Assembly: GCA_964458085.1 (NCBI GenBank) | Contig: CAYWFF010000002.1 | Location: 3,473 to 62,532, forward strand | Direction: 5' to 3' | Origin: an uncultured Gammaproteobacteria bacterium | GTDB taxonomy: Bacteria > Patescibacteriota > Microgenomatia > UBA8517 | Length of the DNA: 59,060 bases | Shown: positions 30,034 through 47,180 of the stretch, in pieces | How the letters are laid out: every line of letters starts with the position of its first letter | Position numbering within the stretch: the stretch's first letter is position 1 | Program-made: the position numbers and the translations under genes | Notes under the pieces: generated by a model | Told to the model about the DNA's origin: nothing | Seen by the model: the letters and a program-made list of their open reading frames with translations, nothing else | Databases searched by the model: none

Positions 30034-30034
30034 G

Positions 30035-30655: not shown

Positions 30656-30657
30656 AT

Positions 30658-31275: not shown

Positions 31276-31303
31276 CTACCTGTCCTTCAATAATTTTCAT
31301 AAT

Positions 31304-32170: not shown

Positions 32171-32262
32171 CTTTATTGTTGCGTTTACTATTGATTTTTA
32201 AAAGCACCGTAGTATACTTGTTCCTATAGTTTAATAATTGTTGTTGTTGTTTATCTGTGAAT

Positions 32263-33249
32263 ATGAAGAAAATATTAGGTGTTATCATCATTATTGTTAT
32301 CGCCTTTGTAGCATTTTTTGTATTAAAAAATAAAAATGTTGCTAAAGTAAGGACTTCAACTCAAACGGAAAAAGTATCACTTCGGTTAAAATGGCTCGAC
32401 CAGGCACAGTTCTCTGGTTTTTATCTTGCAAAGAGTAAAGGTTTATATAAAGAAAAAGGGTTGGATGTAACTATTAACCCGGGCGGTCCTGAAGTTTCAC
32501 CGGTGCAGATGGTCGTTTCTAAGGTTGATAATTTTGGAATTACTGGTGCCGACCAGATAATTTTGGCAAGAGAAAAAGGTTTACCAATTGTTGCTCTAGC
32601 AGTAATTTATAAAGATACTCCTGTTGCCATAGGTTCTTTGAAAAAGACCAATATTACTAAACCGCAGGACCTTCAAGGAAAGAAAGTCGGATTGATATAC
32701 GGAAGGGATGAAGAAACAATCTACCGGGCACTTCTGGTAAAGGAAAAAGTTGACCCGAAAAGTATAAATGAGGTTGCTCTTCTCTCTGGATTGTCGCAAC
32801 TTACTACCGGAGCTATTGATGCACAAATTCTATATGAAATTAACGAACCGATTTTACTTGAACAACAAGGTTTTGAAGTGAACCTGATTAAACCTAGAGA
32901 CTACGATATTAATTTTTATGCCGATGTTCTTTTCACTACTGAAGATATGATAAAGGAACATCCTCAGGAAGTAAGGAGCTTCGTCAAAGCAAGTATCGAA
33001 GGATGGAAATCAGTTTTTAGTAATCAGGAAGAAGCAATAAACGAAGTGGTGAATGTCAGCAGCTCTTTAGACAGAACTCATCAAACTAAATTCCTTGAAC
33101 TTAGTAAACCTTTAATTACAGGTAAAGGAGAAATCGGTTATTCCGATAAAAAGGTATGGGAAGATATTCAAACGACTCTTTTAAGCCAGAAACTACTTAA
33201 AAACTCTATCGAGATTGACAAAGTATTCACCAACGACTTCTTGAAATAA
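32263..33249 (+). CDS. ABC transporter substrate-binding protein, NMT1/THI5-like (NitT/TauT family)
   Basis: Signal/TM anchor followed by LRLKWLDQAQFSGFYLAKSKGLYKEKGLDV, typical of NMT1/THI5-like SBPs. GTG at 32257 is an alternative start. Confidence 0.8.
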   Translation: MKKILGVIIIIVIAFVAFFVLKNKNVAKVRTSTQTEKVSLRLKWLDQAQFSGFYLAKSKGLYKEKGLDVTINPGGPEVSPVQMVVSKVDNFGITGADQIILAREKGLPIVALAVIYKDTPVAIGSLKKTNITKPQDLQGKKVGLIYGRDEETIYRALLVKEKVDPKSINEVALLSGLSQLTTGAIDAQILYEINEPILLEQQGFEVNLIKPRDYDINFYADVLFTTEDMIKEHPQEVRSFVKASIEGWKSVFSNQEEAINEVVNVSSSLDRTHQTKFLELSKPLITGKGEIGYSDKKVWEDIQTTLLSQKLLKNSIEIDKVFTNDFLK

Positions 33250-34004
33250 TGAGCCTCATTCAAGTTAACAAGCTTGAGAAAAGTTACAGCAATAGCGGAG
33301 TTCTTGCTGTTAAGAACCTCTCTTTTAATATCGACGAAGGGGATTTTGTTTCTATTGTTGGTCCTTTTGGTTGTGGTAAAACGACTGTTTTACATTTAAT
33401 TGGTGGAATCAAGGATTCGTATAAAGGAGAGATAGATATAGCTGGTGACTCGCCGATTCAAGCTAGGATGAAAAGAAAAATCGGATTTTGTTTCCAAAAA
33501 TCTAACTTGCTTCCATGGTTAAATGTTATAGACAATGTGTTACTTCCTCAAAAAATTGCTAATGTCAAAGTAGATAGAAGCAGAGCAGTTAAACTTTTAA
33601 AAATGGTTGGTTTAGAAAAGTATCGATTTATGAAACCTTATAATCTCTCGGGTGGAATGCAGCAGTTAGTCTCGATCACCCGCGCACTCATATTAGATCC
33701 AAAAATTTTATTATTGGATGAACCCCTCTCTTCAATCGATGAAATCAATAGATTTAAAATGCATCTTAAGCTATTGGAAATTCATAAAAAAACAAGAAAA
33801 ACAACTGTTATGATAACTCATTCAATTAATGAAGCAGTGTTATTATCAAATAAAGTTATTATACTAACTCCCCGACCTGCTAGGGTTAAAAAGATAATCG
33901 GAATTAATTTATCTGCTCGAGATAGTAAGACCCTATTTTCAAAGAAGTTTGTTAACTATACCAGAACAATAAGAAAGGAGTTGATTAATGACAAGAATAA
34001 TTAG
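33249..34004 (+). CDS. ABC transporter ATP-binding protein (NitT/TauT family)
   Basis: Walker A GPFGCGKTT, signature LSGGMQQ and Walker B ILLLDEP. Confidence 0.9.
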   Translation: MSLIQVNKLEKSYSNSGVLAVKNLSFNIDEGDFVSIVGPFGCGKTTVLHLIGGIKDSYKGEIDIAGDSPIQARMKRKIGFCFQKSNLLPWLNVIDNVLLPQKIANVKVDRSRAVKLLKMVGLEKYRFMKPYNLSGGMQQLVSITRALILDPKILLLDEPLSSIDEINRFKMHLKLLEIHKKTRKTTVMITHSINEAVLLSNKVIILTPRPARVKKIIGINLSARDSKTLFSKKFVNYTRTIRKELINDKNN

Positions 34005-34734
34005 AAGATTTCTACCTTTTTTTGTATTTATTATTTTATGGTATGCTACTGTCGAAGTTTTCAAAATTCCACCATATGTTTTACCAAAACCTTTAGTTGT
34101 TTTCGAATCGTTAATTTTAAATGGTTCAACAATACTTTCAAATACTGTGATCACACTCCGTGAGGCTTTTATTGGTTTTTTTATTGCTAACTTAGTAAGT
34201 ATAACAATTGCTCTGGGAATTGCTTTCAATAAAAATATGGAAAATACAATTATGCCCTTTGCGATTACTTTAAAAACTATACCGATATTAGCGATAACTC
34301 CGCTTTTAGTGGTTTGGTTTGGGCCAGGAGAATATTCAAAAATTGCTACAGCTGCATTAATTTGTTTTTTCCCGTCATTAGTAAATGTCCTCAGAGGAGT
34401 AAAGTCACTTGATAGAGATTTAACTGAATTTTTCAAGGCTTATGCTGCAAATAAACTACAACTAATAAAGATGTTAATTATTCCCAGCATTCTACCTTAT
34501 TTGTTTGCAGCTCTTAAAGTTTCCAGCTCACTTGCGGTTATCGGTGCTTTAGTTGGTGAATTTATTGGGGCAAATAAAGGTTTAGGATTTTTAATAATTT
34601 CAAACTACTATACTCTAAATACCCCTTATGTATTTGCATCTATTATTGTTTCGAGTTTTGTCGGTATTGTTTTTTATTATGTAATTCATTTTTTTGAAAA
34701 AAGAATTATAACCTGGACTGCAACAATTGACTAA
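33988..34734 (+). CDS. ABC transporter permease (NitT/TauT family, BPD_transp_1)
   Basis: Six TM segments. Overlaps the ATPase gene, suggesting coupling. Confidence 0.85.
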   Translation: MTRIIRRFLPFFVFIILWYATVEVFKIPPYVLPKPLVVFESLILNGSTILSNTVITLREAFIGFFIANLVSITIALGIAFNKNMENTIMPFAITLKTIPILAITPLLVVWFGPGEYSKIATAALICFFPSLVNVLRGVKSLDRDLTEFFKAYAANKLQLIKMLIIPSILPYLFAALKVSSSLAVIGALVGEFIGANKGLGFLIISNYYTLNTPYVFASIIVSSFVGIVFYYVIHFFEKRIITWTATID

Positions 34735-35275
34735 TTCTATGAAAGAAATAGAGATTTATCATATGTTACCAAGGACTAAGCAATTGTTAGAAGACGATAT
34801 ATTAAGGAGAAGGGCAGAATTATCTGATATTTCACAACAAGGTGCTGAAATTTGGGAAGGAGATCAGTGGCATAGTACAACTTACCGTGAGCAGCAACGT
34901 AGGAGAGAACTGGCAATTAGACTTTTGCAATTAATAGATCAAAAAAGTGGGAAGATAGATGTGCTTAATAAACCCAGACAGAATAACCAGATTGAATTGG
35001 GACATATGGCTAAAGTAATGTTGTTGGATGATCCTGATGTTTTGGAAGTAGGTATTCCCTACTCGCTTATTCATGTTTTAAGTAGTGAAGATGTCTTATA
35101 TCTAGGTCAATTGTTCGACAATATAAGAGAAATGGTTGTTTCCCAAGAGTCTCCGATTGGAAATGCCCTGCTAGGTAGAGGACGAAATGAAATAGCTACC
35201 TATCTTCAGGTAAATAGGCTAAAAATTCTCGGGGACAAGGATGCTATTAAAACGTCATATCTTTTTGATGGGTAG
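34727..35275 (+). CDS. GreA/GreB-family-like factor
   Basis: N-terminal coiled coil with EGDQWHSTTYREQQRR (cf. GDLSENAEY) and C-terminal ...SQESPIGNALLGRGRNE (cf. SPIGKALLGKKVGD). Divergent from the canonical family. Confidence 0.5.
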   Translation: MTNSMKEIEIYHMLPRTKQLLEDDILRRRAELSDISQQGAEIWEGDQWHSTTYREQQRRRELAIRLLQLIDQKSGKIDVLNKPRQNNQIELGHMAKVMLLDDPDVLEVGIPYSLIHVLSSEDVLYLGQLFDNIREMVVSQESPIGNALLGRGRNEIATYLQVNRLKILGDKDAIKTSYLFDG

Positions 35276-35305: not shown

Positions 35306-35682
35306 GAACTGATTAACACATATCATTGCGTATGTTGGAAAGTGAAAAGCTGGTTAATAACAATCAAACAGCTGAAAGCTCTAAAGTCATACAGGAAAGA
35401 GTTCAGAAAGCAAGAAATATTCAGATTAAGCGATTTAATGGGACTAAATTTAAATCAAATAGTGAAATGAGTTCAAAAGCTGTTAAACAGTTTTGTTCGC
35501 TAACTCCTGATTGTGCTTCTCTTATGATCAGTGCAACAGCTTCAATGAATTTAACTGGCAGGTCGTATCACAAAGTCCTAAAAGTATCACGTACTATTGC
35601 AGATCTGGAAGGAGAAAAGGATATTTTAGTAAAACATCTTGCTGAAGCGCTTCAGTACAGGCCAACAGAGGACGTATTTTAG
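35306..35682 (+). pseudogene. comM/yifB 3'-end remnant (copy 2 of the 377-bp repeat)
   Basis: Translation TD*HISLRMLESEKLVN...LAEALQYRPTEDVF matches 96 of 124 positions of the intact gene's C-terminus (hand count). In-frame TAA at the third codon; the 5' 1.15 kb of the gene is absent. Confidence 0.85.
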
Positions 35683-35698
35683 ATACACATACCCATAG

Positions 35699-35727
35699 TT
35701 GTTTATTTGGTTTCATTTTTATATACT
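35699..35727 (+). promoter_or_regulatory. Candidate promoter TTGTTT-N17-TATACT for the island B plus-strand operon
   Basis: -35 at 35699-35704 and -10 at 35722-35727, 20 nt upstream of the ATG at 35748. Confidence 0.35.
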
Positions 35728-35747
35728 TCTTCATATTAAAAGAATGC

Positions 35748-36971
35748 ATGACTCAGGAACTTAAAGGCAAAGAAACAACTGACTATTCACTTTATCCAAT
35801 TTACAAAGCTGCTTTTTTCAGAAATAGTGGCATGATCTCTTTAAGATTGGAGGAAAAGAAAGAAACCGTTTGTTTCAAAGAAAGGTTGTCGAATCAGGAT
35901 GAAGCACAGCCTGATGGAAATCTGTTTGCTTTTGTAACAAATCCCGTAAATCCAGAGGCATCAAAGTTATTAGAGCAACCCGATAACCTAACTAAGTATT
36001 TTAAAGAGGAAGGTTTTGAGGTACATAGACCCATGCCTGTTGTTAGTAAATCAGGAAGCACTTTATTTATTTCTGCGGGTGTGCAAAACCTGGAAAGTGT
36101 TTATATAGGTGAAGGTCCTATTTCTAATAGAAGTATTTATGTCGCGCAACCTGTTTTCAGGACCCAATATGTAGGTCAGGCAGCTGAAGGAATCTCTACT
36201 AGCTTTGTAAATGTGTGTTTGGAATCGATAAATCAAGGTGCTGAAACTCATTTCCAAAACTTGCAAAAAGTATTTACTTTATTTGCTAATCTTGGTCTAA
36301 AAAGGGAAGATTTTTTATTTGAGGTAGATGAGAAAGAATCTAGTTGGGGTGATCGCACACATTTGCAAAAACGAGTTAAAATATTTTTTCAAGGTTTGGA
36401 GATTGGTGATGCAATTTTTATCGAAGGCTTTCCTCAAAATACTAGAAAAAGTTTAGAGATCAGTGATATCGGATTGGGTTTTGAAAGACTTAAATGGGTA
36501 TTAAAGGGAGGGTCTTACTGGGATGTACATGAGGAGGCTTCTTCTCATAAACATAGGCTTAGCACAGTTGACTCTACCAAAACTTTGGCCCTTTTGGCTG
36601 GTTCAGATGTTGTCCCTCATTACAAAGCTCATGGTTACAGATTTAGACTACTTTCAAAAAAGGTAGTTGAAGAGCTTGCTTCGGGAGAAAGCAGAGAGGG
36701 TTTGTCCGACTTATTAGGAAAATACCATGATTATTGGAATAAATGGACTGAACTTCCTGTCTCAAAAGGCGTTTCTCTGAAACGTGTTCTTGATGAAAAT
36801 ACCAGAAATTTCAATGTCGAATTGATTAACAGGCTGAAAAACTTTTATGATAGTGTAGACGTTGATATAAATAGGCCTACGGATCAAGTAGTACAGCTAT
36901 TAAAAGGTACACCTGCTGATATAAGTAAAATTCAGGATATAATTAATGAAATGGGAGGAGTGTTGTTATGA
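35748..36971 (+). CDS. Stand-alone class IIc (AlaRS-type) aminoacyl-tRNA synthetase catalytic-core paralog
   Basis: STLFISAGVQNLESVYIG (cf. AlaRS LLFTNAGMNQFK..FLG), LEIGDAIFIEGF (cf. EIWNLVFMQF) and motif 3 ISDIGLGFERLKWVLKGG (cf. IDTGMGLERLAAVLQG). At 407 aa it has no room for tRNA-recognition, editing or C-Ala domains. Confidence 0.6.
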   Translation: MTQELKGKETTDYSLYPIYKAAFFRNSGMISLRLEEKKETVCFKERLSNQDEAQPDGNLFAFVTNPVNPEASKLLEQPDNLTKYFKEEGFEVHRPMPVVSKSGSTLFISAGVQNLESVYIGEGPISNRSIYVAQPVFRTQYVGQAAEGISTSFVNVCLESINQGAETHFQNLQKVFTLFANLGLKREDFLFEVDEKESSWGDRTHLQKRVKIFFQGLEIGDAIFIEGFPQNTRKSLEISDIGLGFERLKWVLKGGSYWDVHEEASSHKHRLSTVDSTKTLALLAGSDVVPHYKAHGYRFRLLSKKVVEELASGESREGLSDLLGKYHDYWNKWTELPVSKGVSLKRVLDENTRNFNVELINRLKNFYDSVDVDINRPTDQVVQLLKGTPADISKIQDIINEMGGVLL

Positions 36972-37660
36972 ACTGTAAAATGTTTCTATCGGGTGGGGGT
37001 TCTGAAAAAGACACTTTTGATTTTGATAAAAAGTTTATTAACTCGCTTAAATTCAGAAAAATCCTCTATATCCCAATTGCTATGGAAAGGGACGCTCAAG
37101 GATACGAAAGCTGCTACGACTGGATAACTTCTTCACTTACCCAATTTGATGATAAATTCATTGAAATATCGATGTGTGTAGATTTGCATGAGATTTCGCT
37201 TTCGAAGTTAAATAATTTTGCAGCGGTTTACTTTGGCGGTGGCAATACATATAGACTTCTGGATAAAATCTACTCTTCTGGCTTTGATAAACTACTATTG
37301 AATTTTATTGAAAATGGAGGAATTTATTATGGTGGAAGTGCAGGAGCAATTGTTATAGGCAAAAGTATTGAAACTGTTCTGGAAGAAAAGGATAAATTTT
37401 ATTCTTTTAGTAAGGGTTTGAAGCTAATTGGAGATTTTTCTTTAGTCTGTCATTTTAATAAACATACTGAGGATAAAATAAAGAATATGGATAAATTTTT
37501 GGATAAACATAATACTCCCGTTATTGCCCTGCCTGAAGATTCGGGACTAATTGTAGATAGGGATAAAATCCAAATGTTCGGGAAGTCAGAATCAATGATT
37601 TTTTACCCCAACGGTACGCGAAGAAAGTTCATACAAGGAGAATCAATTAATATAAAGTAG
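36968..37660 (+). CDS. Peptidase S51 family (dipeptidase E/cyanophycinase-like)
   Basis: GGGNTYRLL and nucleophile motif YGGSAGAIV. 4-nt overlap with the upstream gene. Confidence 0.75.
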   Translation: MNCKMFLSGGGSEKDTFDFDKKFINSLKFRKILYIPIAMERDAQGYESCYDWITSSLTQFDDKFIEISMCVDLHEISLSKLNNFAAVYFGGGNTYRLLDKIYSSGFDKLLLNFIENGGIYYGGSAGAIVIGKSIETVLEEKDKFYSFSKGLKLIGDFSLVCHFNKHTEDKIKNMDKFLDKHNTPVIALPEDSGLIVDRDKIQMFGKSESMIFYPNGTRRKFIQGESINIK

Positions 37661-37662
37661 TT

Positions 37663-39321
37663 ATGAAGGTAAAACTTAATATTAATCCAAACAAAAGTAA
37701 TCTTTACCTAGGGATAGGTTCGAATCACGACTTTTCCGGATGTTTAGTTAAGAATGGAAAAATATTCGAAGCTATCGAAGCAGAAAGAATTAGTAAATTA
37801 AAACATTCTCTGGATGCATTTAATCCCTTTAGCTCAGTATTAAAATATTTATTTAATACAAAAGAGGTAAATATTGCCGCATTAGCCTCCTGTGACACAC
37901 TAAGCCCGAAATATTATTACAAATACAAAGACAAAATCAAGCTTTATAATCACCATCTTTGTCATGCCGCAACAGTTTTTTACACTTCCCCTTTTCAAGA
38001 ATCTGCAGTGTTTGTTGCAGATGGTTTAGGAAGTATGTGGGAATTAAACGACGGAGGCTATAAATATGAAACGTACTCTTATTATCAAGGGAATAATAAT
38101 AAATTAAAACTTATGAGCAAGCAATTCGGCGTAGTCGATAACTCTCTGGATGAAACACACTTACATCAAATATATATTCCCAACTCAATGGGGCTTTTTT
38201 ATAACTACATTACTAAAATAGTTGGATTTAATTTTTTGGACGACGGAAAAACGATGGGTCTTTCAGCATACGGCAATCCGGATGCTTTTTATAAAGAATT
38301 CCTCAAATTCTTCAGTTTCAAGAAAGATGGAATTGTAGACAATAATTTTGCTAAGAAAGAGGTAGATTATTATTCAGACATGGTAAGCTCATGCGCGGAT
38401 GCAAAAAAACAATTCAAAATAAAAGCAGATATTGCTGCCTCCGCACAAAAGGTTTTTGAAGAATGTTACTTTTATTGTTTAAATTATCTCTACCAAGAAA
38501 CTAAAAATGAAAATCTTTGTCTAAGCGGAGGGATTGTACTAAATAGTGTGGCGAATGGCAAAATCAAAAAGATGACTTCTTTTAAAAAGATACACTACTT
38601 TCCCGGCTGTGGGGACGACTCTATAGCTATTGGATCTGCATTTTTAGCTTATCTGGAGGATCATCGGGAAAATTCTAAAAGGTTAGTTAACTGGCAAACT
38701 CCTTTCTTAGGTAAAGATTATACAGATGACATCATCGAGTCGAAGTTAAGGAAGTATAAAGTAAAATTTAAAAAATCTGAAGATATATATAAAACGTCAG
38801 CAAACTTACTTGCCGAAGGAAAGATTGTTGGCTGGTTCACAGGAAAATCTGAATTTGGCCCTCGGGCTTTAGGTCATAGAAGCATAGTGGTTGATCCTCG
38901 AAACCCGAAAATAAAAGATATTCTTAATGACCGTGTTAAACACCGGGAATTTTTCAGGCCGTTTGCCCCAGCTATATTAGAAGAATACACAGACGAATAT
39001 TTTGATGTTATCAATTCTCCATCTCCTTACATGCTCGAGGTATTTCCCATTAAAAAAGATAAACAATCTTTAATTCCAGCGGTTGTACATAACGATGGAA
39101 CCGGACGTATACAAACGGTCGGAAGAAAAAACACCGAGTTTTATAAACTTATTAATGAATTTTTTAAGTTAACAGGTGTACCTGTAATATTAAACACATC
39201 ATTTAATATTAATAAGATGCCCATTGTTGAAACCCCGGAAGATGCAATTAACTGTTTCTTAAACACGGAGATTGATGTGCTTTCTATTGGAAACTATATA
39301 TGTACAAAAAACTCTGGCTAG
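37663..39321 (+). CDS. Carbamoyltransferase (NodU/CmcH family)
   Basis: Metal-binding NHHLCHA, ...LCLSGGIVLNSVANG..., EFGPRALGHRSI and NTSFN motifs. Length 552 aa. Confidence 0.85.
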   Translation: MKVKLNINPNKSNLYLGIGSNHDFSGCLVKNGKIFEAIEAERISKLKHSLDAFNPFSSVLKYLFNTKEVNIAALASCDTLSPKYYYKYKDKIKLYNHHLCHAATVFYTSPFQESAVFVADGLGSMWELNDGGYKYETYSYYQGNNNKLKLMSKQFGVVDNSLDETHLHQIYIPNSMGLFYNYITKIVGFNFLDDGKTMGLSAYGNPDAFYKEFLKFFSFKKDGIVDNNFAKKEVDYYSDMVSSCADAKKQFKIKADIAASAQKVFEECYFYCLNYLYQETKNENLCLSGGIVLNSVANGKIKKMTSFKKIHYFPGCGDDSIAIGSAFLAYLEDHRENSKRLVNWQTPFLGKDYTDDIIESKLRKYKVKFKKSEDIYKTSANLLAEGKIVGWFTGKSEFGPRALGHRSIVVDPRNPKIKDILNDRVKHREFFRPFAPAILEEYTDEYFDVINSPSPYMLEVFPIKKDKQSLIPAVVHNDGTGRIQTVGRKNTEFYKLINEFFKLTGVPVILNTSFNINKMPIVETPEDAINCFLNTEIDVLSIGNYICTKNSG

Positions 39322-40265
39322 CCGTAAAGATAATTAACGGTGTTTTTGTAAGTAATAGCAGACACGGCATCGGATGATAATTTCAGGAGGTCAACTAGAA
39401 CGTTTACCTCATCAAAATAACTATTTTCGCTTCTTATTTTGCCGTTTGAATTGATTGACGTTGTCCATGGTTCATCAGTTCCCCAAATAAGATGATCTTT
39501 CAAAACACCAAAGTATCTATTTAACGAGGCCGCGGGATTTTGAAAATCGATTAAATTGGGAAAATTAACTATTTCACTTTTTTCCTCGACTGCTCTACAA
39601 ATCTGCAAGAATGGCGCACAATCTATAAATATATTTTGATGCCTAGGTACTTCCTTAATTATTTCCTGATCAAGTCCTCCCAAATGAGCAATACAAACAC
39701 GAAGTTCCGGTAAAGTCTCGCCCAATTCAATAATATTTCGTGGGTGTGAAAGTCGATCCAATCCAGCATGTATTAAGATTGGAAGGTTCCGCTCAACTGC
39801 GAAGTCACCGATTCCGCTTTTTGCAATTTCAAGCGCCCGGCAACCACTAGCTAACGAGTGGAATTTTAGACCAAATATTTGCCGTCTGTCATGTAAATTT
39901 CCCAGGAAAGCCAATTGTTCAGGCACTTTTGTGGTCGGATCCACACAAGCAAAAGGGATAACGGCCTCAATTCGCTTCGAATCGTTTACAAGAACGAAAT
40001 TCTCCTGCTGGTACGGAAAATCTTGTTGGCCACTGCGTTCTTTTCTACCTTCGGTTACCAAAATTCTCGCATTAAAATAAGACGAGCCTGGAAACGGGGT
40101 CGTAATTGCTCGATTTACACCTGCAAATTTTACTTTTAAAGCAAGATCTTCAACCGCCTGGGAGTGCGGAATATTACCCATGAAGAAATTATATGTATCT
40201 GTACCACCAGAATGGGTATGAGAGTCAATTACGTTGTTTATCCCCAACTCTTTTAATGATGTCAT
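39318..40265 (-). CDS. Metal-dependent amidohydrolase (TIM-barrel, Amidohydro_2-like)
   Basis: N-terminal VIDSHTHSG and later HAG/HLGG metal-ligand motifs. Confidence 0.7.
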   Translation of the reverse strand: MTSLKELGINNVIDSHTHSGGTDTYNFFMGNIPHSQAVEDLALKVKFAGVNRAITTPFPGSSYFNARILVTEGRKERSGQQDFPYQQENFVLVNDSKRIEAVIPFACVDPTTKVPEQLAFLGNLHDRRQIFGLKFHSLASGCRALEIAKSGIGDFAVERNLPILIHAGLDRLSHPRNIIELGETLPELRVCIAHLGGLDQEIIKEVPRHQNIFIDCAPFLQICRAVEEKSEIVNFPNLIDFQNPAASLNRYFGVLKDHLIWGTDEPWTTSINSNGKIRSENSYFDEVNVLVDLLKLSSDAVSAITYKNTVNYLYG

Positions 40266-40272
40266 ATGTTCA

Positions 40273-41517
40273 TTAAAAATTAACGTTATTCCCGTTTATA
40301 AACTCGTCCGTCACTGAACTTATATTTTTTAGACCATCTTTAATGATTTTCGTAATAATACTTTTGTTAGCATCCGAAATGACCCTAACTTTCCAAGGAT
40401 CCTTTAATGGCGCGCCGTTTTGCGAAACCATCTCTATGATATTCGCCTTACCTGTTTTCTGAAAAATTTCTTTGGAAAGTTTTTTTGTTAAAACTGCATA
40501 GATAAATCCAGAATAATATCTCGGATTTTTTCCATTTGTGCCCTCCAGACTCATAGGACGGTTTGATGTTATTAATCCGTTTGTTCTATTGCCTCTACCT
40601 GAAACCCCAATATCGCCAGACAAAGAAGATCCAGTAACAGTTAGGTAAACATTCATTTTCTCATAATCATCCTTGGTGTTTAGTGATAGGTTAATATTAT
40701 TTCCGGGCAATGAGGCTGTAAATTTTTTGTAAATAAGTCTTCCTATTTGATTTAAATTTTTCTTGTAAATTTCTAAAGACTCTACGTGCTTGGCTATCTG
40801 TGGTATACACATTGTAATTGAAATATTTTTTTTATCCCTAATGGCCATAATCTTTATATCAGTACCGAGCCAGGGATATCTGTGTTTCGTTGACTTCTGA
40901 TTTAAAAAGTTTTCAACAGTAAGGACTGTAGATTCTAAATTCGAATAAGGAGCATATGCTACGCAATACGAAGTATCATTCGCCACCAGTTTTTCATATC
41001 CTCTAACCTCTTTATTGTTTTTTGGGGCAAACATACTAGCAATTGCACCCTTACTGGATAGTATTGTTCCCGGTCCGGGGTAAGAAGTTAAATTGTTTTG
41101 GATTAAGTAATCCCGAGAATATTTTAAATCCGGAAACATCATATTGAAGTATTCTCTAATTGTTGACGTTGTAATTTTATCAATCGGAATTATTTTTTCC
41201 TTATAGGAACCAGAGGCTCTCCCCGCAACTATAATTTTGATTGGTTCGACAAATCGCCCCTTTCCATAACTAACCTCGGTCTTACCGCCAATAACCATTA
41301 CTTTGTCTATTTGATGATGAAGAATTAGATTGTCACAATTTTTAAGAGTATACCTTGAGTATGCCAAACTTATATTCGCAGCTATTGCATCTGCTATTGT
41401 ATCTGGGTGACCCAACCCCTTCCTTTCAATAGTTTCAAAATCTTTATTAAAGGGTTTACTATTATAAATAGTTATCTCCATTTTTTTAATTGCATCAGGT
41501 CCATATATATAATCCAT
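40273..41517 (-). CDS. Archaeal-type S-adenosylmethionine synthetase (methionine adenosyltransferase)
   Basis: ERKGLGHPDTIAD, ANDTSYCVAYAP, YLTVTGSSLSGDIGVSGRGNRTNGLIT and SLEGTNGKNP are collinear with the remembered Methanocaldococcus MAT sequence. Confidence 0.85.
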   Translation of the reverse strand: MDYIYGPDAIKKMEITIYNSKPFNKDFETIERKGLGHPDTIADAIAANISLAYSRYTLKNCDNLILHHQIDKVMVIGGKTEVSYGKGRFVEPIKIIVAGRASGSYKEKIIPIDKITTSTIREYFNMMFPDLKYSRDYLIQNNLTSYPGPGTILSSKGAIASMFAPKNNKEVRGYEKLVANDTSYCVAYAPYSNLESTVLTVENFLNQKSTKHRYPWLGTDIKIMAIRDKKNISITMCIPQIAKHVESLEIYKKNLNQIGRLIYKKFTASLPGNNINLSLNTKDDYEKMNVYLTVTGSSLSGDIGVSGRGNRTNGLITSNRPMSLEGTNGKNPRYYSGFIYAVLTKKLSKEIFQKTGKANIIEMVSQNGAPLKDPWKVRVISDANKSIITKIIKDGLKNISSVTDEFINGNNVNF

Positions 41518-41522
41518 ATTTA

Positions 41523-42587
41523 TTAAATTTGTTGGTTTAAAGTGTCCGAAAATCTATCATTTATTTGCCTGTCTGTATAATTACAATCAACACATTTTAC
41601 TTCCCTAAGCATTGCCCGTCTTATTGACTTACTATTTCTCCAGACATTTTCAAAAGCATTTGCACTATCATCGTTTAAATCAACGGCCATATTTCCCATA
41701 AGATAACCATTAACTTCCCTCGGTTGTGCACCCAAGCAACAACTATATAAATCACCATAAGGATTAATTGCTGATTTGAAATATGGAATAACACATGGAC
41801 GGCCGATCTTAAATCTATCTAACTGTGTTCTAATTTCTACAGCATCACCCCAGTATGCCTTCACTAATGATAGTGATTTTTCTACACCGTCTCTCTGCGT
41901 GTCAGGAATGTATTTTCCATATATGTCATGCTTGAAAATTACTTTATCAACTCCAACCTCACCCAGCAAAGTATCCGCAAATTGAACTATCTCTCCTTGA
42001 TTATGCGGGTTTGTTATAAATGATGCACCGACTAACAAATTAGTATTTTGTCTTTTCTTTTCTTCCACGACACCTCTAATGTTAACTAAAGTAGTACCAA
42101 GTAATGACGGATCAACATTCCGGATTAAAGAATATGTATCAGGATTAACTGTATCCATGCTGAATCGAATTTCAACGCAATTTACAATATCCGAAAGAAG
42201 ATCGTTTGGTATAAAATTGCCATTTGTCACAATTCTGGTGTTAAGGTTTCTGAGTTGAGCCTCTTTAATAAATGTTCTGATGTTTCTTGATAAAAAAGGT
42301 TCACCACCTCCAGAAATCGAATACTCTCTAATTTTTAGTTCTGCTAAATTAGCAATAAGATTTCTTATTTGGTTTTCAGAGAGATATCTTGATGTATCCC
42401 TATCTTTCCCAAAACCTTTCCCTCCATGAAAGCAATAGTTACAACCCTGATTACAAATATCGGTTGGATGAACTTCAACACTAATAGGATATGGATCATA
42501 ACCTTTAATAACTTCTCCAAATACCGCCTCGGTTTGACTTAGCAAGATAGCTTCCTGTTTCATAGTTTCAGGAATTATATCACTCAT
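41523..42587 (-). CDS. Radical SAM enzyme with C-terminal auxiliary-cluster (SPASM/twitch-like) region
   Basis: CNQGCNYC (CX3CX2C), SGGGEP, and C-terminal cysteines (CVIPYF...YSCC...CVDC). Confidence 0.88.
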   Translation of the reverse strand: MSDIIPETMKQEAILLSQTEAVFGEVIKGYDPYPISVEVHPTDICNQGCNYCFHGGKGFGKDRDTSRYLSENQIRNLIANLAELKIREYSISGGGEPFLSRNIRTFIKEAQLRNLNTRIVTNGNFIPNDLLSDIVNCVEIRFSMDTVNPDTYSLIRNVDPSLLGTTLVNIRGVVEEKKRQNTNLLVGASFITNPHNQGEIVQFADTLLGEVGVDKVIFKHDIYGKYIPDTQRDGVEKSLSLVKAYWGDAVEIRTQLDRFKIGRPCVIPYFKSAINPYGDLYSCCLGAQPREVNGYLMGNMAVDLNDDSANAFENVWRNSKSIRRAMLREVKCVDCNYTDRQINDRFSDTLNQQI

Positions 42588-42750
42588 ACTTCATTTTTTC
42601 CCTATATCACTAAAAAAAGAGAAAATTATAATTTCTATTTCTTTGTATATAGCTTTGGATACCCGACTATTCTCAAGTTTGCTTCTGGTGTCATCTCTTG
42701 AGCATTGCACCAAGGTTTCGTTTATATACATATTGTTGTGCTTCATAAAT

Positions 42751-43127
42751 GAACTGATATTCATATCAATGTCCCATCAGTTGAAACTCAAAAACTTATC
42801 AGTGAAAATTCCAAAGGAGAGCCTTCGCAACTCATTCAATTGAGGGTTCAAAAAGCAAGAAATATGCAAATAAAGCGTTTCAAAGAAAGTAAATTAAAAT
42901 CAAACAGTGAAATGTCTACAAAAGATGTCAATAATTTTTGTCCTCTGACAACGAACTGTAAACAAATGATGCTTTCCGCAGTTTCTGCGATGAATTTGTC
43001 TGCCCGTTCGTACTTTAAAGTAATTAAAGTGGCAAGGACTATTGCTGATTTGGCGGAAGTTAATGAAATAGCCCCTGAGCACATTGCAGAGTCACTTCAA
43101 TACCGCCATAAAGAAAAAGATATGTAA
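42751..43127 (+). pseudogene. comM/yifB 3'-end remnant (copy 3 of the 377-bp repeat; probably the displaced ancestral gene end)
   Basis: Translation TDIHINVPSVETQKLISEN...AESLQYRHKEKDM matches 71 of 124 positions of the intact C-terminus (hand count). An in-frame TGA lies immediately upstream. The track ORF at 42840 covers only its distal part. Confidence 0.8.
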
Positions 43128-43165: not shown

Positions 43166-43609
43166 GTGAAGGCAGTCATCCAACGGGTTTCTCAGGCGGT
43201 TGTTAGAGAAAAATCAACTCATGAAGTATTAGGAGAGATCGGACCCGGTCTTTTTATTCTTCTTGGTGTTGAAGATTCTGATACGTTTGACACGGTTGAC
43301 AAGTTTGTAAAAAAGGTCTCAAATATCAGAGTCTTTTCGGATAAACACGACAAAATGAATCTTTCTTTAACAGATGTCGCTTTCAGTGTTTTATTAGTTT
43401 CCCAGTTTACGCTTCTTGCCGATACTGAAAAAGGCAATAAGCCTTCGTTTACAAAAGCCGCGAACCCTGCTTTTGCTAAGGAAATTTATCTTAAGTGTAT
43501 AGATGAATTTAAAAACCAGGGTGTCAAAATCGAAAGTGGAGAATTCGGAGCTTATATGGAAATTGAAACTTTGTGTGACGGTCCCGTAACTATTGCTCTT
43601 AACTTTTAA
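43166..43609 (+). CDS. dtd: D-aminoacyl-tRNA deacylase
   Basis: N-terminus MKAVIQRVSQAVV, ...SQFTLLADT.KGN.PSF... and C-terminal GPVTI. Length 147 aa. Confidence 0.9.
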   Translation: MKAVIQRVSQAVVREKSTHEVLGEIGPGLFILLGVEDSDTFDTVDKFVKKVSNIRVFSDKHDKMNLSLTDVAFSVLLVSQFTLLADTEKGNKPSFTKAANPAFAKEIYLKCIDEFKNQGVKIESGEFGAYMEIETLCDGPVTIALNF

Positions 43610-43611
43610 TT

Positions 43612-44247
43612 ATGCTTATGCGTTCCTATCTGAGAAGTACAATTTTAAAGCCCCGCAATATAATTCGTAATTGCTTTACTACCAGCGGAATTGCTTTTAT
43701 CCTGACCTTGCTAGTGACTCTGTATATTTTTGCAGTAATGCAGGGCTATGCCATGGGATCTTCGTCTACCTCAAAAACAGCTCCTATAATCGCAAAAGTA
43801 ATAGTTACTCCCACTATGTTTCCCGAAACACCCACTCCTACAACTAAACCGGCGGGCCCTAAAAAAGCTACAGCTTTATGGGGCGGACCTGAATTGTGGG
43901 ATGCAGTAAATAAAAAGCGTCAGGAGTTGGGGGTAAATCCTTTGGGACTCAGGACAGAACTTTGTACAATTGCTTCTCTGAGGCTGAATGAATTATTGGA
44001 TTTAGGGAAACTTGACGGCCATGCAGGATTTACAAAGTTAACGGAAAACAGACCGGAGCTTGCATGGATTTTTGAGAATTACAATCATACAGCAGAATTT
44101 CTTGCCCAGGGTGGAAGCACTCCGCAAGAAACGGTTGCAATGTGGGAGAACACCTTAGGCCACTCTAAACTACTTAAAGGGGGAGAATATGTTTGGGGAT
44201 GTATTTATGCTCAAAATACGATTGCGGTTGCGATAGCAGCGTTTTAA
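43612..44247 (+). CDS. Membrane-anchored CAP/SCP (YkwD-like) domain protein
   Basis: TM anchor, TP-rich linker, and a CAP-like C-terminal region (NKKRQELGVNPL...MWENTLGHSKLL). Confidence 0.55.
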   Translation: MLMRSYLRSTILKPRNIIRNCFTTSGIAFILTLLVTLYIFAVMQGYAMGSSSTSKTAPIIAKVIVTPTMFPETPTPTTKPAGPKKATALWGGPELWDAVNKKRQELGVNPLGLRTELCTIASLRLNELLDLGKLDGHAGFTKLTENRPELAWIFENYNHTAEFLAQGGSTPQETVAMWENTLGHSKLLKGGEYVWGCIYAQNTIAVAIAAF

Positions 44248-44500: not shown

Positions 44501-44782
44501 TTAAGATTGCCAAATAAAGTATAGCATCACTTCAGCTGCAATTATGATTAAGGCAAAGAGTAAACTTTTCGCAATATCTTTCTTAATGCTTGTTAATTGT
44601 GCCGATTGTGCCGATAAATTGGCATTATTAGTCTTAGTTGAGGCTGAGGGTGTATTTTCTTGGGAGCTTTTAAATTGCCTCTTGACAGTAGCCTCAGAAA
44701 TGCTGTTACCAGGCTCCCAATGAATAGCACCATGATTCTTTTTTGCCTGTTCCTTTTGTTTTTTAGTTCGTCGTTTTGCCAT
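44501..44782 (-). CDS. Small basic protein with C-terminal TM anchor (hypothetical)
   Basis: Lys/Arg-rich N-terminus and one C-terminal TM segment. Co-directional with the DUF5679 gene. Confidence 0.45.
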   Translation of the reverse strand: MAKRRTKKQKEQAKKNHGAIHWEPGNSISEATVKRQFKSSQENTPSASTKTNNANLSAQSAQLTSIKKDIAKSLLFALIIIAAEVMLYFIWQS

Positions 44783-44900
44783 TTTTTACAACCTCATTGT
44801 AACTGGTGGACACGAAAAGACAATAGGATTGCTGTTGCTTGACAGTGAGATGGGAAGGTGCCACAATGGCTGAGGTAAATTCGTACTCGGAATTCTTGGT

Positions 44901-45350
44901 ATGCAGCTTTCAAATATATTAGTCAGTATCATTGGTGTATGGACACTTGTACTGAGTGTGGTTTTATGGTTAATTTATTTACGGTTTAACAAGTTAACTA
45001 AAGAGGTTCCGGAAGGTAATTTATTAAAGATTTTAGAAAAAGTAATCAAAAAAGAAGATGAAAACGAGAAAGCAATAAGCGATTTAGGAAAAGAGCTTTC
45101 AAACCAGCAATCGTTAAATTTGACTAATGTCCAAAAAGTAGGATTGGTCCGCTATAATCCTTATAATGAAGTAGGCGGAGACCATAGTTTCTCAATTGCC
45201 CTTCTTACAGGACTTGAACACGGATTTATACTAACAGGTTTACATGCAAGGGAGAGAACGCGTTTGTATGTCAAACCGATAAAATCCGGAAAAAGTGAAT
45301 ACGATCTTTCTAAGGAAGAAAAAAAAGCTTTGACTTTAGCACTAAAATAA
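44901..45350 (+). CDS. DUF4446 family protein
   Basis: N-terminal TM segment followed by VGLVRYNPYNEVGGDHSFSIALL...FILTGLHARERTRLYVKPI, characteristic of the family. Confidence 0.7.
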   Translation: MQLSNILVSIIGVWTLVLSVVLWLIYLRFNKLTKEVPEGNLLKILEKVIKKEDENEKAISDLGKELSNQQSLNLTNVQKVGLVRYNPYNEVGGDHSFSIALLTGLEHGFILTGLHARERTRLYVKPIKSGKSEYDLSKEEKKALTLALK

Positions 45351-45356
45351 ATAATT

Positions 45357-46568
45357 ATGGTAAACGGATCTAAAAAACTAATGGTTTTAACGACCTTTCT
45401 TGGGTTGTATCTTCTGTCAAGCGGTTTGTCCTACGCAGTTTTTTCTTATCTTAAAGCCGATCCTTCAGGAGGCTTTGCTTCCGAAAATGTTAGCGAAAAT
45501 AGATCACGTATAGACCCGTCTCTTCCCAAAACTGAAATTTGTCCCCTAAACGGTGCAATGTACAGTAAGCCCGAGAAAGATATCTGGGAAACCCGCAGAC
45601 CCATTGCTGCCGTAATTGAAAACCATCTTGATTCCCGACCTCAGTCCGGTTTATCTAAAGCAGATATCGTATACGAAATAGTTGCAGAAGGCGGAATAAC
45701 AAGGTTTCTGTCTATCTTTTACTGCGGTGCCGCTGCTGAAGAAGTGAAGATTGCTCCTGTTCGAAGTGCGAGGGTTTATTTAGTCAATTGGGCAGCGGAG
45801 TACGGTAAATCTCCTATTTTTGTTCATATCGGAGGAGCGAATAATATTTGCAATAATTGTCCCGGAGGAGTAAAACCCAGAGGTCAAACTGCCCGTGAAG
45901 TTGATGCGTTTCAACTATTAAGTACTATGGGTTGGAGATATGCTAAAGGTAATGATTTTGACGGCGGAACAAATATCGGTTATCCGGTTATCGTACGGGA
46001 CCAATTCAGATTGGGAGATAAGGCTGCCTGGGAACATTCTGTAGTAGGTTTCACGGATAAGATTTTTGATGAAGCAAAGGAGAGGGGTTTCGGAGCAACG
46101 GACGAAGACGGAAAAGCATGGGATGCTGCATTTACCGATTGGAAATTCACTGACGGAAAAGCAGCTAATTCTCCGGATTATGATTCCGTATCGTTCGCTT
46201 TTAGTAACAACAGTGACTATAATGTCACTTGGAATTACGATAAAGCCGCAAATAACTACAAAAGGGAGAATGGCGGTAAACCCCACATTGATAATGAAAC
46301 CAAAGAGCAGATTACTGCCCAAAATGTTGTTATAATGCAGGTAACAGAACGCGGTCCGGTAGATGAGGAAAAGCACATGTTTTATGAGACCATAGGTTCA
46401 GGAGATGCCCTCATCTTTCAAAACGGTGAAGTTATAAAGGGTACATGGAAAAAAACACGTGCGACTGCCCGGACAGTATTCTCTGACGCAAGTGGTAGGG
46501 AGATAAGTTTTGTTCGTGGTCCGATTTGGATCGAAGCGGTTGCAGATGACAATAAAATTACATACTAA
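45357..46568 (+). CDS. DUF3048 domain protein (YerB-like lipoprotein/secreted)
   Basis: RPIAAVIENHLDSRPQSGLSKADIVYEIVAEGGITRFLSIF is the family hallmark. Confidence 0.75.
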   Translation: MVNGSKKLMVLTTFLGLYLLSSGLSYAVFSYLKADPSGGFASENVSENRSRIDPSLPKTEICPLNGAMYSKPEKDIWETRRPIAAVIENHLDSRPQSGLSKADIVYEIVAEGGITRFLSIFYCGAAAEEVKIAPVRSARVYLVNWAAEYGKSPIFVHIGGANNICNNCPGGVKPRGQTAREVDAFQLLSTMGWRYAKGNDFDGGTNIGYPVIVRDQFRLGDKAAWEHSVVGFTDKIFDEAKERGFGATDEDGKAWDAAFTDWKFTDGKAANSPDYDSVSFAFSNNSDYNVTWNYDKAANNYKRENGGKPHIDNETKEQITAQNVVIMQVTERGPVDEEKHMFYETIGSGDALIFQNGEVIKGTWKKTRATARTVFSDASGREISFVRGPIWIEAVADDNKITY

Positions 46569-46591
46569 ATCTCCTGCCCTTCACTCTATCA

Positions 46592-47176
46592 ATGGCTGAA
46601 TTAAGCGACATTATTACTTCAAAAGTCCGTATAAAAATACTTGAACTTTTCCTGTCTGATACATCTGAGATGTATCACGTTAGGGGAATTGTCAGGGAGG
46701 TTAAAGAAGAAATCAATGCTGTCAGGCGTGAGCTGGAGCGAATGGATAAAGCAGGAATTCTTAAAAGAGAAAACAGGGGGAATCGATTATATTATTGGCC
46801 GCGAGCTGATTATCCTTTTTTTGGAGACCTTATCGGGATAGTTGCCAAAACAACCGGACTCGGAGCAGAAATTATTGCAAACAAAAATAAAATCGGCAAA
46901 GTCGGTTATGTTATGTTTTCAGGCAGATTTGTTAGGAAGAAAACGAGGAAGCGGGAAGACGATGTTGATATATTGCTAGTTGGAGACGTTCTCATTCCTG
47001 AATTGGCAGCTATTATTCGAAAAGAGGAATCGAAACGGGGGAAAGAGATAAACTATACTGTAATGAGCAGGGAAGAATTGGATTTCCGAAAGAAAAGACG
47101 TGACCCGTTCCTTTTGGGAATTCTCGCAGGCAGCCGCACCATGATAATTGGAGATGAAGAAGACTTAGTCGGATAA
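46592..47176 (+). CDS. Winged-helix (ArsR-like) DNA-binding protein with C-terminal uncharacterised domain
   Basis: N-terminal KVRIKILELFL...YHVRGIVREV...INAVRRELERMDKAGIL wHTH pattern. Confidence 0.5.
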   Translation: MAELSDIITSKVRIKILELFLSDTSEMYHVRGIVREVKEEINAVRRELERMDKAGILKRENRGNRLYYWPRADYPFFGDLIGIVAKTTGLGAEIIANKNKIGKVGYVMFSGRFVRKKTRKREDDVDILLVGDVLIPELAAIIRKEESKRGKEINYTVMSREELDFRKKRRDPFLLGILAGSRTMIIGDEEDLVG

Positions 47177-47180
47177 CCCC

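Follow-up and report, generated by a model that had tools for sequence, protein, structure and literature searches.

A mobile six-gene cassette built on an AlaRS-derived protein, a dedicated methionine adenosyltransferase and an S51 hydrolase in a Patescibacteriota genome

Results

Gene content of island B

The stretch of DNA analysed here (59,060 nucleotides, hereafter the window) comes from contig CAYWFF010000002.1 of assembly GCA_964458085.1 (positions 3,473 to 62,532 of the forward strand), deposited as an uncultured Gammaproteobacteria bacterium and placed by GTDB within the Patescibacteriota (Microgenomatia, UBA8517), and our subject is the cassette of six genes, G1 to G6, that occupies a segment of it named island B. 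Three of these genes lie on the plus strand: G1 (35748-36971, 407 aa) encodes a stand-alone protein derived from alanyl-tRNA synthetase (AlaRS), G2 (36968-37660, 230 aa) a serine hydrolase of family S51, and G3 (37663-39321, 552 aa) an O-carbamoyltransferase of the NodU/CmcH/TobZ type. The other three lie on the minus strand and encode a radical S-adenosylmethionine (SAM) enzyme with a Cys-rich C-terminal domain, putatively of SPASM/twitch type (G6, 41523-42587, 354 aa), an archaeal-type methionine adenosyltransferase (MAT) of a module-specific subfamily (G5, 40273-41517, 414 aa), and a metal-dependent TIM-barrel hydrolase or decarboxylase of the Amidohydro_2 family (G4, 39318-40265, 315 aa). 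G3, G4 and G6 are treated below as accessory genes. Spacing is tight throughout, with 4 nt shared by the G1 and G2 open reading frames (ORFs), gaps of 2 nt between G2 and G3, 5 nt between G6 and G5 and 7 nt between G5 and G4, and a convergent arrangement of the two operons, G1-G3 and G6-G4, in which the stop codons of G3 and G4 overlap by 4 nt. A sequence-only reading of the window had described this layout of six tightly packed ORFs in two convergent operons and had assigned each product to an enzyme family; all six ORFs proved to be intact and exactly placed, and profile searches against Pfam and NCBIfam confirmed every family call.

Counts of predicted promoters and terminators in island B were no different from those in shuffled sequence. 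Rfam detected no riboswitch or T-box either in the window or in nine Bacillota-affiliated loci (Bacilli, Clostridia and Tenericutes-labelled) carrying related genes, and no dedicated tRNA gene adjoined the module consistently across loci.

Co-inheritance of the six genes in other lineages

The clustering of the six genes is far beyond chance, as they were recovered together outside this genome (identifiers beginning with L or P are our own). Two contigs reached through a G4 homologue of 80% identity, one of 105 kb from ENA (L155) and one of 335 kb from JGI (L156), carry the genes for the radical SAM enzyme, the MAT and the amidohydrolase facing those for the carbamoyltransferase, the S51 hydrolase and the AlaRS-like protein, an arrangement that repeats the gene order and orientation of the window. 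At the nucleotide level the window and this cassette are 73.6% identical over 6.7 kb, and amino acid identities from G1 to G6 were 62, 72, 79, 80, 70 and 81%, in a cassette that occupies another genomic site, not the comM gene at which island B lies. A third lineage, seen in nine samples (L157), also has all six genes clustered, in a slightly different order, with a gene for seryl-tRNA synthetase (SerRS) on one side and one for a large serine recombinase on the other. The sequence-only reading had made its proposal of a functional system depend on the six genes occurring together elsewhere and on their not being close orthologues of genes in unrelated housekeeping contexts, and both expectations were borne out, the first by these lineages and the second by the fact that every close homologue examined sits in a module. 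The six-gene unit of L155/L156 and L157 also speaks against a mosaic island in which G1-G3, G4 and G5-G6 would have come from different lineages.

Beyond the cassette of L157, positions 13500-17426 hold the serine recombinase followed by a methyltransferase, a NUDIX protein and part of another MAT, namely an N-terminal fragment of 85 aa that shares 48% identity with the MAT of the cassette. This fragment suggests that an earlier copy of the module was replaced or disrupted there.

A conserved core of three genes

The invariant core of the module consists of G5 (MAT), G1 (AlaRS-derived) and G2 (S51), the other three genes providing lineage-variable tailoring functions. The census behind this comprised 67 dereplicated loci analysed with phmmer and jackhmmer, with ORFs called by a simple purpose-made caller and a partner counted when it lay within 5 kb of the AlaRS-like gene. 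An S51 gene was present in 55/67 loci, a MAT gene in 56/67 and the complete trio in 51/67, the last figure being 31/34 where each flank extended for 3 kb or more. The six-gene cassette first proposed as the functional unit is thus co-inherited, as expected, but the conserved unit within it is the three-gene core, G3, G4 and G6 being variable. The association was also tested in reverse, by running a profile of the module MAT against a set of 5.8 billion proteins and choosing four top matches on long contigs blind to their neighbours: an AlaRS-like gene lay beside the MAT in 4/4, an intact S51 gene in 3/4 and a SerRS gene in 2/4.

In an exhaustive profile search, the AlaRS-like family comprised at least 281 clusters (50% identity) at a threshold of E<=1e-30 and 491 when the threshold was E<=1e-10. 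A pattern scan of 185,579 species representatives gave 58 loci, a figure that under-samples the family because it was obtained with one peptide pattern; their hosts were Patescibacteria (Paceibacterota, Saccharibacteria, Shapirobacteria and others), metagenome-assembled genomes (MAGs) of gut Bacilli, 'Tenericutes' and Clostridia, and DPANN archaea.

The S51 gene lies directly downstream of the AlaRS-like gene, on the same strand, in 47 loci, and the two ORFs overlap in 35/47. In addition, gene fusions were found between the AlaRS-like protein and S51 (P0198), between the AlaRS-like protein and a class-I SAM methyltransferase (P0236), and between S51 and a GT4-type glycosyltransferase (L015, L017, L018). 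Fusions and overlaps together support a physical coupling of the ligase, the hydrolase, the glycosyltransferase and a methyltransferase. In L070 (4213-7251), the position of S51 is taken by two short unannotated ORFs (143 and 84 aa) and no intact S51 gene was detected; this copy of the module lies among GmrSD, HEPN, ICEA and DNA methyltransferase genes, a context resembling a defence island.

Full-text literature searches found no description of the module, PADLOC 2.0 returned no match for G1 to G5, Rfam gave no linked RNA element, and the source databases label the AlaRS-like proteins 'hypothetical protein'. The initial proposal of an uncharacterised, co-functioning cassette, possibly for an aminoacylated or carbamoylated small molecule or for glycan modification, is therefore supported, as the genes form a co-inherited unit for which no described pathway was found. 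Each of the enzyme families is already known, and so is the use of paralogues of aminoacyl-tRNA synthetases (aaRS) as ligases in small-molecule biosynthesis; what is new is the AlaRS-derived family, its obligatory partnership with a MAT subfamily and an S51 hydrolase, and its host range.

The AlaRS-derived protein G1

G1 scored below the cut-off of every curated AlaRS family model tested (42.2 bits against a cut-off of 744.7 for TIGR03683, 25.3 against 457 for TIGR00344, and 16.1 against 30.3 for Pfam tRNA-synt_2c, PF01411). Its AlphaFold2 (AF2) model (pLDDT 86, pTM 0.86) nevertheless had archaeal AlaRS structures as best Foldseek matches (2ztg, 3wqy and 2zze; E ~1e-15, TMq 0.64), at 16% identity, and the profile alignment to PDB entries reaches across the catalytic core into the beginning of the tRNA-recognition domain. 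With 407 aa, the protein is devoid of the editing and C-Ala domains, model and alignments ending within the tRNA-recognition-like domain, and its homologues are likewise stand-alone proteins of 330-420 aa.

Among 27 members of the family, invariant residues include R138 (in QPxxR, motif 2) and D240, G244 and R247 (in SDIGFGLER, motif 3), in motifs that align with QPCIR and DTGYGLER of AlaRS, where the Asp holds the alpha-amino group; a Trp aligned with the active-site Trp of AlaRS is also kept. Since the motif-2 Arg, the motif-3 Arg, the Asp and Gly and this Trp are invariant, G1 has probably retained the ability to bind ATP and activate an amino acid. Regarding the specificity pocket, for which we take N212 and V214 to be the numbering in E. 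coli AlaRS, the position aligned with N212 is an Asp and that aligned with V214 is variable. Most family members keep a PSN motif whose Asn aligns with N359 of the Archaeoglobus fulgidus AlaRS, the residue that presumably reads the G3:U70 pair, and the subgroup to which the window belongs has PHY or PHF at this place.

Homologues of G1 diverge much faster than the genuine SerRS encoded next to them, and G1 is the least conserved of the six proteins between the window and L156 (62%). The possibility that G1 is a split AlaRS, or the only AlaRS of the organism, was judged unlikely on score, domain content, evolutionary rate and distribution; in particular, a role as sole AlaRS appears very unlikely, because of the 16% identity, the lacking domains, the fast evolution and the occurrence of the family in MAGs of Bacilli. 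Basal members of the family (P0040-P0048, L036 and L059) carry an N-terminal Cys-rich element (CxxC...C) that aligns with the Cys-containing N-terminus of archaeal AlaRS. Together with the archaeal type of the MAT, this element suggests an archaeal origin of the module and a later spread to bacteria.

The S51 hydrolase G2 and the methionine adenosyltransferase G5

G2, which is translationally coupled to G1, matched Peptidase_S51 of Pfam with 93.8 bits, and its best solved relative is an alpha-aspartyl dipeptidase. The catalytic triad is largely constant in 49 homologues from modules, Ser124 being kept in 49, His162 in 48 and Glu190 in 45 of them.

The assignment of G5 as an archaeal-type SAM synthetase was upheld by its match to AdoMet_Synthase (PF01941, 321 bits) and could be refined, as G5 belongs to a MAT subfamily dedicated to the module. 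All catalytic motifs were aligned with those of the MAT from Methanocaldococcus jannaschii (7p82, 211 bits), and GHPD, HH..DK, NDTS, DIK, GRGNR and GKNP are all present; against the structures of the canonical enzymes from M. jannaschii, S. solfataricus and P. furiosus, with which it shares the fold, scores ranged from 188 to 211 bits. In contrast to these canonical enzymes, G5 falls under every equivalog cut-off (best NCBIfam score 306.8, cut-off 481), has a divergent loop, and is a companion of the AlaRS-like gene, both in the four homologues sampled blind (4/4) and in the census (56/67). In module MATs, the canonical segment GQGSxDLVxVF...ANDTS is replaced by a longer, distinct loop, running from ...NLS..SSPG to NDTS, so that the segment before NDTS is 15-20 aa longer and has a conserved motif of its own, SSPG...R..WF.PR; HMMER cannot align across this loop for the M. 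jannaschii and S. solfataricus structures. Around residues 296-304, the G5 protein of the window reads SL-SGDIG, where nearly all module MATs have IESGDEG and the M. jannaschii MAT has SAEMGDDG, with one acidic residue deleted and another replaced.

Accessory genes G3, G4 and G6

G3 contains a Kae1-like N-terminal domain (Carbam_trans_N, PF02543, 118 bits) and a YrdC-like C-terminal domain (Carbam_trans_C, PF16861, 228 bits), and among proteins of solved structure it is closest to O-carbamoyltransferases that tailor antibiotics (NovN and GdmN at ~230 bits, TobZ at ~198 bits). Orthologues of G3 lie within the module in L006/L007, L055, L058, L155/L156 and L157.

G4 matched Amidohydro_2 (PF04909) with 35.5 bits, and D14, H16, H18, H136, H166, H194 and D264 are invariant in its family, in keeping with the HxH, His and Asp metal ligands of the superfamily. 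The AF2 model (pLDDT 95) predicts a metal-dependent TIM barrel, for which the structural search returned only remote neighbours of the same superfamily (IDCase, LigW, dihydroorotase and a COG3618 lactonase), with no specific function indicated. Orthologues within the module were found in L001, L009, L010, L155/L156 and L157.

Finally, G6 matched Radical_SAM with 50.5 bits, and its translation contains the cluster motif CNQGCNYC (CxxxCxxC). Its SPASM/twitch domain is borderline (20.5 bits against a cut-off of 21.5), and it is weakly similar to viperin-like enzymes and to BlsE. Orthologues lie directly upstream of the MAT gene in L073/L074 (318 bits), L155/L156 (81% identity) and L157.

Genes around the module

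The surroundings were surveyed by a Pfam census of 131 flanking proteins and by clustering. A genuine SerRS is adjacent in ~23/67 loci, spread over several mutually very divergent lineages; it scores 480 bits to serS and is 63-97% identical (mostly 70-97%) within the Parcubacteria group. In other loci ProRS, HisRS or LeuRS are adjacent. A GT4-type glycosyltransferase occurs in 13/67 loci, directly after S51 or fused to it, and the inositol-phosphate synthase Ino1 in 5/67 loci plus L071, being placed directly upstream of the MAT gene in L011, L012, L017, L063 and L071. Inositol monophosphatase (IMPase), HAD and histidine phosphatases, radical SAM enzymes, Amidohydro_2 proteins and methyltransferases also recur, and a carbamoyltransferase was found in 5 loci plus L155-L157.

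Two loci showed richer surroundings. In L072, the fusion of the AlaRS-like protein with a methyltransferase is surrounded by GT1 and GT2 glycosyltransferases, a polysaccharide deacetylase, a DegT sugar aminotransferase, two radical SAM enzymes and a MAT, which makes it a sugar-type cluster. In L073, and in the same way in L074, genes for a radical SAM enzyme, MAT and AlaRS-like::S51 lie upstream of a cluster of aaRS-derived proteins and a peptidase, which in L073 (11497-16977) comprises ProRS, a divergent ProRS paralogue (212 bits), a methyltransferase, an archaeal AsnRS core resembling AsnA and an S66 peptidase. S66 peptidases were found also in L158 and near the L156 cassette, the latter being clearly MccF-like (it scores 266 bits with the Bacillus anthracis MccF homologue and 65 bits with LdcA). 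The L155/L156 copy of the cassette further has NUDIX and HD nucleotidases close by, and that of L157 has NUDIX and HD-domain genes.

A sister module was also noticed in L156 (1-2551) and L158 (1244-5899). It contains another AlaRS-core paralogue (373-378 aa), which BLAST did not relate to G1, and an MccF-like S66 peptidase, together with a protein lacking any Pfam match that measures 366-369 aa, or 375 aa in the ORF called for L156. In L158 the sister module further includes LeuRS, a G4 homologue, a methyltransferase and two DCD-like proteins. Genes for histidine kinases and response regulators rank among those most often found next to the module, with HATPase_c in 6/131 flanking proteins (L004, L014, L026, L028, L071 and others), and several are encoded upstream of comM in the window (18240-26704); they could be regulators of the module or a coincidence.

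Insertion at the 3' end of comM

The location of the cassette on a mobile island, proposed from the sequence alone, is supported by fragments of comM at its borders, a low G+C content and an empty site in a relative. A full-length comM/yifB gene (27747-29276, plus strand, 509 aa; Pfam ChlI, Mg_chelatase and Mg_chelatase_C) is followed on the same strand by two copies of its 3' end. The first (35326-35682, 118 aa; Mg_chelatase_C, 110 bits) separates island B, on its right, from a neighbouring island A, on its left, and the second (~42768-43127; Mg_chelatase_C, 97 bits) is the right boundary of island B, its ORF being called from 42840 with homology already from ~42768. In the alignment both fragments start at the same point of comM, at a common AACTGAT junction. 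Compared with the C-terminus of the resident ComM, fragment 1 shows 77% and fragment 2 57% identity; the present C-terminus of the resident protein was probably supplied by the last element inserted. The G+C content is 0.352 in island B and 0.350 in island A, against 0.394 in the remainder of the window. In the metagenomic relative L077, whose ComM is 64% identical, comM directly precedes homologues of window positions 44501-48524, an arrangement that represents an empty site.

Three features expected of an integrative island were thus found, namely copies of the target directly repeated at the flanks, a relative with an empty site, and a deviant composition, and the 3' end of comM is the insertion target. 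Partial copies of comM downstream of comM were present in three relatives, L119 (3388-3738 and 6854-7120), L151 (14718-15612) and L105 (15190-15777), so that the 3' end of comM is a recurrent insertion site and the diverged tandem 3' ends result from repeated insertions at one point of the gene, in this lineage and in several relatives. No integrase or recombinase was found between 29277 and 43127 of the window, nor any such gene among the larger ORFs checked in the comM-linked insertions of L119 and L151. Recombinases do flank the module in L069 and L038. Island B is best explained as a single horizontally mobile biosynthetic cassette.

Island A (29413-35275) is a second insertion, lying between comM and fragment 1. 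It encodes a phosphoribosyltransferase, a dTMP-kinase-like protein, a Maf nucleotide pyrophosphatase, a PfkB kinase, a three-gene ABC transporter of the NMT1/THI5 type and a GreA-like protein, a set for nucleoside and nucleotide handling that adjoins the cassette. Between fragment 2 and the conserved downstream genes, positions 43166-44247 encode a D-Tyr-tRNA deacylase (dtd) and a CAP-domain protein; this pair is missing from the empty site of L077 and may belong to a third inserted segment.

Discussion

Comparison with known aminoacyl-nucleoside systems

A close parallel to G1 is found in ascamycin biosynthesis of Streptomyces sp. 80H647, where AcmF, a truncated AlaRS-like enzyme with aminoacylation and tRNA-recognition domains only, aminoacylates an adenosine analogue (PMC12945691). 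It works with the aaRS AcmD and with the hydrolase AcmE, which removes the aminoacyl group, and it has lost residues for ATP binding and alanine activation (e.g., D232E), using Ala-tRNA as donor (PMC12945691). G1 resembles AcmF in its truncation to the same two domains and differs from it in that the Arg, Arg, Asp set is kept in G1 and its family. Moreover, the hydrolase of the module is of the S51 and not of the alpha/beta-hydrolase type, the neighbouring aaRS is SerRS and not AlaRS, and the scaffold enzyme is a MAT in place of sulfamate-nucleoside biosynthesis.

The abm cluster for albomycin contains radical SAM tailoring enzymes. In this AbmF/AbmK pathway, AbmF uses seryl-adenylate made by the SerRS of the cluster, which serves both as aminoacyl donor and as immunity factor, and the warhead, the seryl-nucleoside SB-217452, carries a carbamoyl group (PMC8323819). 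The module has in common with it a SerRS encoded alongside, carbamoyl and radical-SAM tailoring and, as proposed here, the joining of an aminoacyl group to a nucleoside. In contrast, the module does not include an AbmF homologue, a non-ribosomal peptide synthetase or a siderophore part; its ligase is AlaRS-derived, its SerRS looks like a housekeeping enzyme, and its hosts belong to the candidate phyla radiation, the DPANN archaea and the Bacillota, not to Streptomyces.

Regarding the hydrolase, the S51 peptidase MccG and the S66 peptidase MccF of microcin C systems cleave aminoacyl-nucleotides (PMC9239234, PMC8323819). G2 is like MccG by family and by its intact triad, and MccF-like S66 peptidases recur near the module. 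However, neither the window nor the loci examined contain the MccA peptide, the MccB adenylyltransferase or the MccC pump, and G2, unlike MccG, is coupled or fused to a ligase and does not lie in an mcc operon.

A possible aminoacylated nucleoside-type product

The substrate, product and biological role that we infer for these genes are of a different standing from the genes themselves, whose catalytic motifs are intact and which are co-inherited, fused in several loci and mobile. We favour, with a probability of roughly 0.4, that the cassette makes an aminoacylated metabolite of S-adenosyl or nucleoside type, with functions for both its synthesis and its trimming. G5 would make SAM or a close S-adenosyl analogue as the adenosyl scaffold, feeding G6 at the same time. 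G1 would activate a small amino acid, of the size of Ala, Ser or Gly, at its retained class-II site for ATP and amino acid, or alternatively would take as donor an aminoacyl-tRNA or seryl-adenylate from the often-adjacent SerRS, and would transfer the aminoacyl group to an amine or hydroxyl of an adenosyl- or nucleoside-type acceptor. G2, in physical partnership with G1, might cleave such an aminoacyl-nucleoside bond, for self-protection, proofreading or maturation. In the version of the window, the product would then be tailored by the radical SAM enzyme G6, by G3, which would O-carbamoylate a hydroxyl, and by G4, which would hydrolyse or decarboxylate it in a metal-dependent reaction, the end product being an aminoacyl-nucleoside resembling an aminoacyl-adenylate that could act as an antimetabolite or effector of epibiotic organisms.

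A nucleoside-type product is favoured because the MAT is as constant as S51 and sugar genes are minority accessories; because AcmF, alone among truncated AlaRS-like enzymes in having been characterised, attaches an aminoacyl group to an adenosine analogue and has an aaRS and a deacylating hydrolase as partners; because the albomycin route uses the SerRS of its cluster and its warhead is carbamoylated; and because S51 (MccG) and S66 (MccF), the two peptidase families with known cleavage of aminoacyl-nucleotides, both recur here. The NUDIX and HD genes near the L155/L156 and L157 copies, the frequent SerRS neighbour and the kinship of G3 with antibiotic-tailoring enzymes agree with this reading. 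A bolder version, which we regard as unlikely although worth stating, is that the trio defines an unrecognised class of metabolites derived from SAM, for which N- or O-aminoacyl-S-adenosylmethionine or an analogue would be examples. Their synthesis would fall to a tRNA-independent ligase of aaRS descent, accepting the adenosyl sulfonium as a surrogate for the 3' end of tRNA or for aminoacyl-AMP.

Several points weigh against an aminoacyl-nucleoside product. No exporter or transporter is conserved with the module, which would be odd for a secreted toxin. A hydrolase coupled or fused to the ligase would undo its product and needs a special explanation, which could be proofreading or a fusion of biosynthesis with immunity like that of MccE. 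The L072 cluster, as well as neighbours such as GT4, Ino1 and sugar phosphatases, speaks instead for an acceptor of sugar or cyclitol type, and the adjacent SerRS resembles the housekeeping enzyme, not obviously a dedicated resistance copy. Finally, the version dependent on aminoacyl-tRNA is not specifically supported, because G1, unlike AcmF, keeps the ATP-site residues.

Other explanations of the module

These sugar-related neighbours are the ground for the best-surviving alternative, which we hold to be doubtful, namely a pathway resembling that of mycothiol. Here G1 would be an ATP-dependent ligase of the MshC type, using an amino acid for the N-acylation of a cell-surface glycan or of an amino-sugar or cyclitol glycoside, S51 or G4 would be the amidase or deacetylase that exposes or recycles the amine, glycosyltransferase, Ino1 and phosphatases would build the acceptor, and the MAT would only supply SAM for radical-SAM and methyltransferase tailoring. 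An aaRS-paralogue ligase does stand, in a subset of loci, beside a GT4-type glycosyltransferase (13/67, directly after S51 or fused to it), an inositol-phosphate synthase (directly upstream of the MAT in the five loci listed above) and HAD, histidine-phosphatase and IMPase genes for sugar phosphatases, and a sugar-type cluster surrounds the methyltransferase fusion of L072. The mycothiol steps follow the order MshA, MshB, MshC, so that the GT::S51 and S51::AlaRS-like fusions would join consecutive steps of glycosyltransferase, deacetylase and ligase. However, the ligase derives from class-II AlaRS and not from class-I CysRS, LmbE deacetylase and the GNAT MshD are missing, and S51 enzymes are not known as deacetylases. 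The MAT has no counterpart among the Msh enzymes; it is as constant as S51 (56 and 55 of the 67 loci), whereas glycosyltransferase and Ino1 are minority accessories, most loci, the window included, having no glycosyltransferase, Ino1 or sugar gene, and in loci with the trio alone there is no enzyme consuming SAM that could account for a dedicated MAT.

A function directed at tRNA is improbable in our judgement. It would have G1 bind the acceptor stem of a tRNA and charge it with a non-standard amino acid, or use an aminoacyl-tRNA as donor, with S51 as a trans-editing or deacylating enzyme and the MAT supplying SAM for an RNA-directed step. The tRNA-recognition-like domain is kept, as is the PSN motif in most family members, with its Asn at the position of A. 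fulgidus N359; SerRS and, in other loci, ProRS, HisRS and LeuRS are neighbours, and one AlaRS-like protein carries a fused methyltransferase whose matches to TRM5/TYW2 and MTS are weak. In the subgroup of the window, however, PSN is replaced by PHY or PHF, the module has no dedicated tRNA gene, T-box or riboswitch, the family diverges much faster than the neighbouring SerRS, and the glycosyltransferase fusion, Ino1, carbamoyltransferase and amidohydrolase would be left unexplained.

An anti-phage or conflict system, in which the module would make or deplete a nucleotide-like molecule on infection, has little to recommend it beyond the patchy distribution, the horizontal mobility on islands, the company of GmrSD, HEPN and methyltransferase defence genes in L070 and the weak similarity of G6 to prokaryotic viperins. 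A known defence system was rejected on the negative PADLOC result for G1 to G5, the pVip matches of G6 covering the generic radical-SAM core only. Phage origin was likewise discarded, since a scan of viral contigs gave only matches of 21-22% identity, too distant for homologues of the module and with no close one among them. Furthermore, the module does not have the architecture of a sensor or effector, and its frequent site beside a housekeeping SerRS is atypical for a defence island. As for plain housekeeping, with G1 as a split or minimal AlaRS (a split AlaRS exists in Nanoarchaeum), G5 as a normal SAM synthetase, G2 as a dipeptidase and no shared pathway, the intact motifs of G1 and G5 and the frequent aaRS neighbours hardly make it credible against 42 bits for a 745-bit AlaRS cut-off and 16% identity to AlaRS structures, a conservation of G1 (62%, the lowest of the six, window against L156) far below that of the adjacent SerRS, a family that the pattern scan located in only 58 of 185,579 species representatives, Bacilli included, a cassette on an insertion absent from a relative, and fusions that link G1 to S51 and to a methyltransferase.

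Significance

Returning to the favoured aminoacylated product, the trio probably makes an amino-acylated small molecule of nucleoside or sugar type in tiny symbiotic bacteria and archaea. Paralogues of aaRS that act outside translation are rare, and each of them (MshC, EpmA, GluQRS and AcmF) has revealed new chemistry; to these is added a large, unnamed AlaRS-derived family firmly tied to a MAT subfamily of its own and to an S51 partner. If the product were of the aminoacyl-SAM type, the module could be categorically new, and the SAM-derived molecule could be a symbiosis effector, an antimetabolite or a new cofactor. Both the 7-kb cassette and the 3-kb trio are small enough for direct heterologous expression. 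The module has spread by horizontal transfer among the least understood host-dependent microbes, namely Patescibacteria, DPANN archaea and reduced gut Bacillota, which are thought to have nearly no secondary metabolism, and the presence there of a conserved and mobile pathway for a small molecule could be relevant to the way they interact with their hosts or exploit them.

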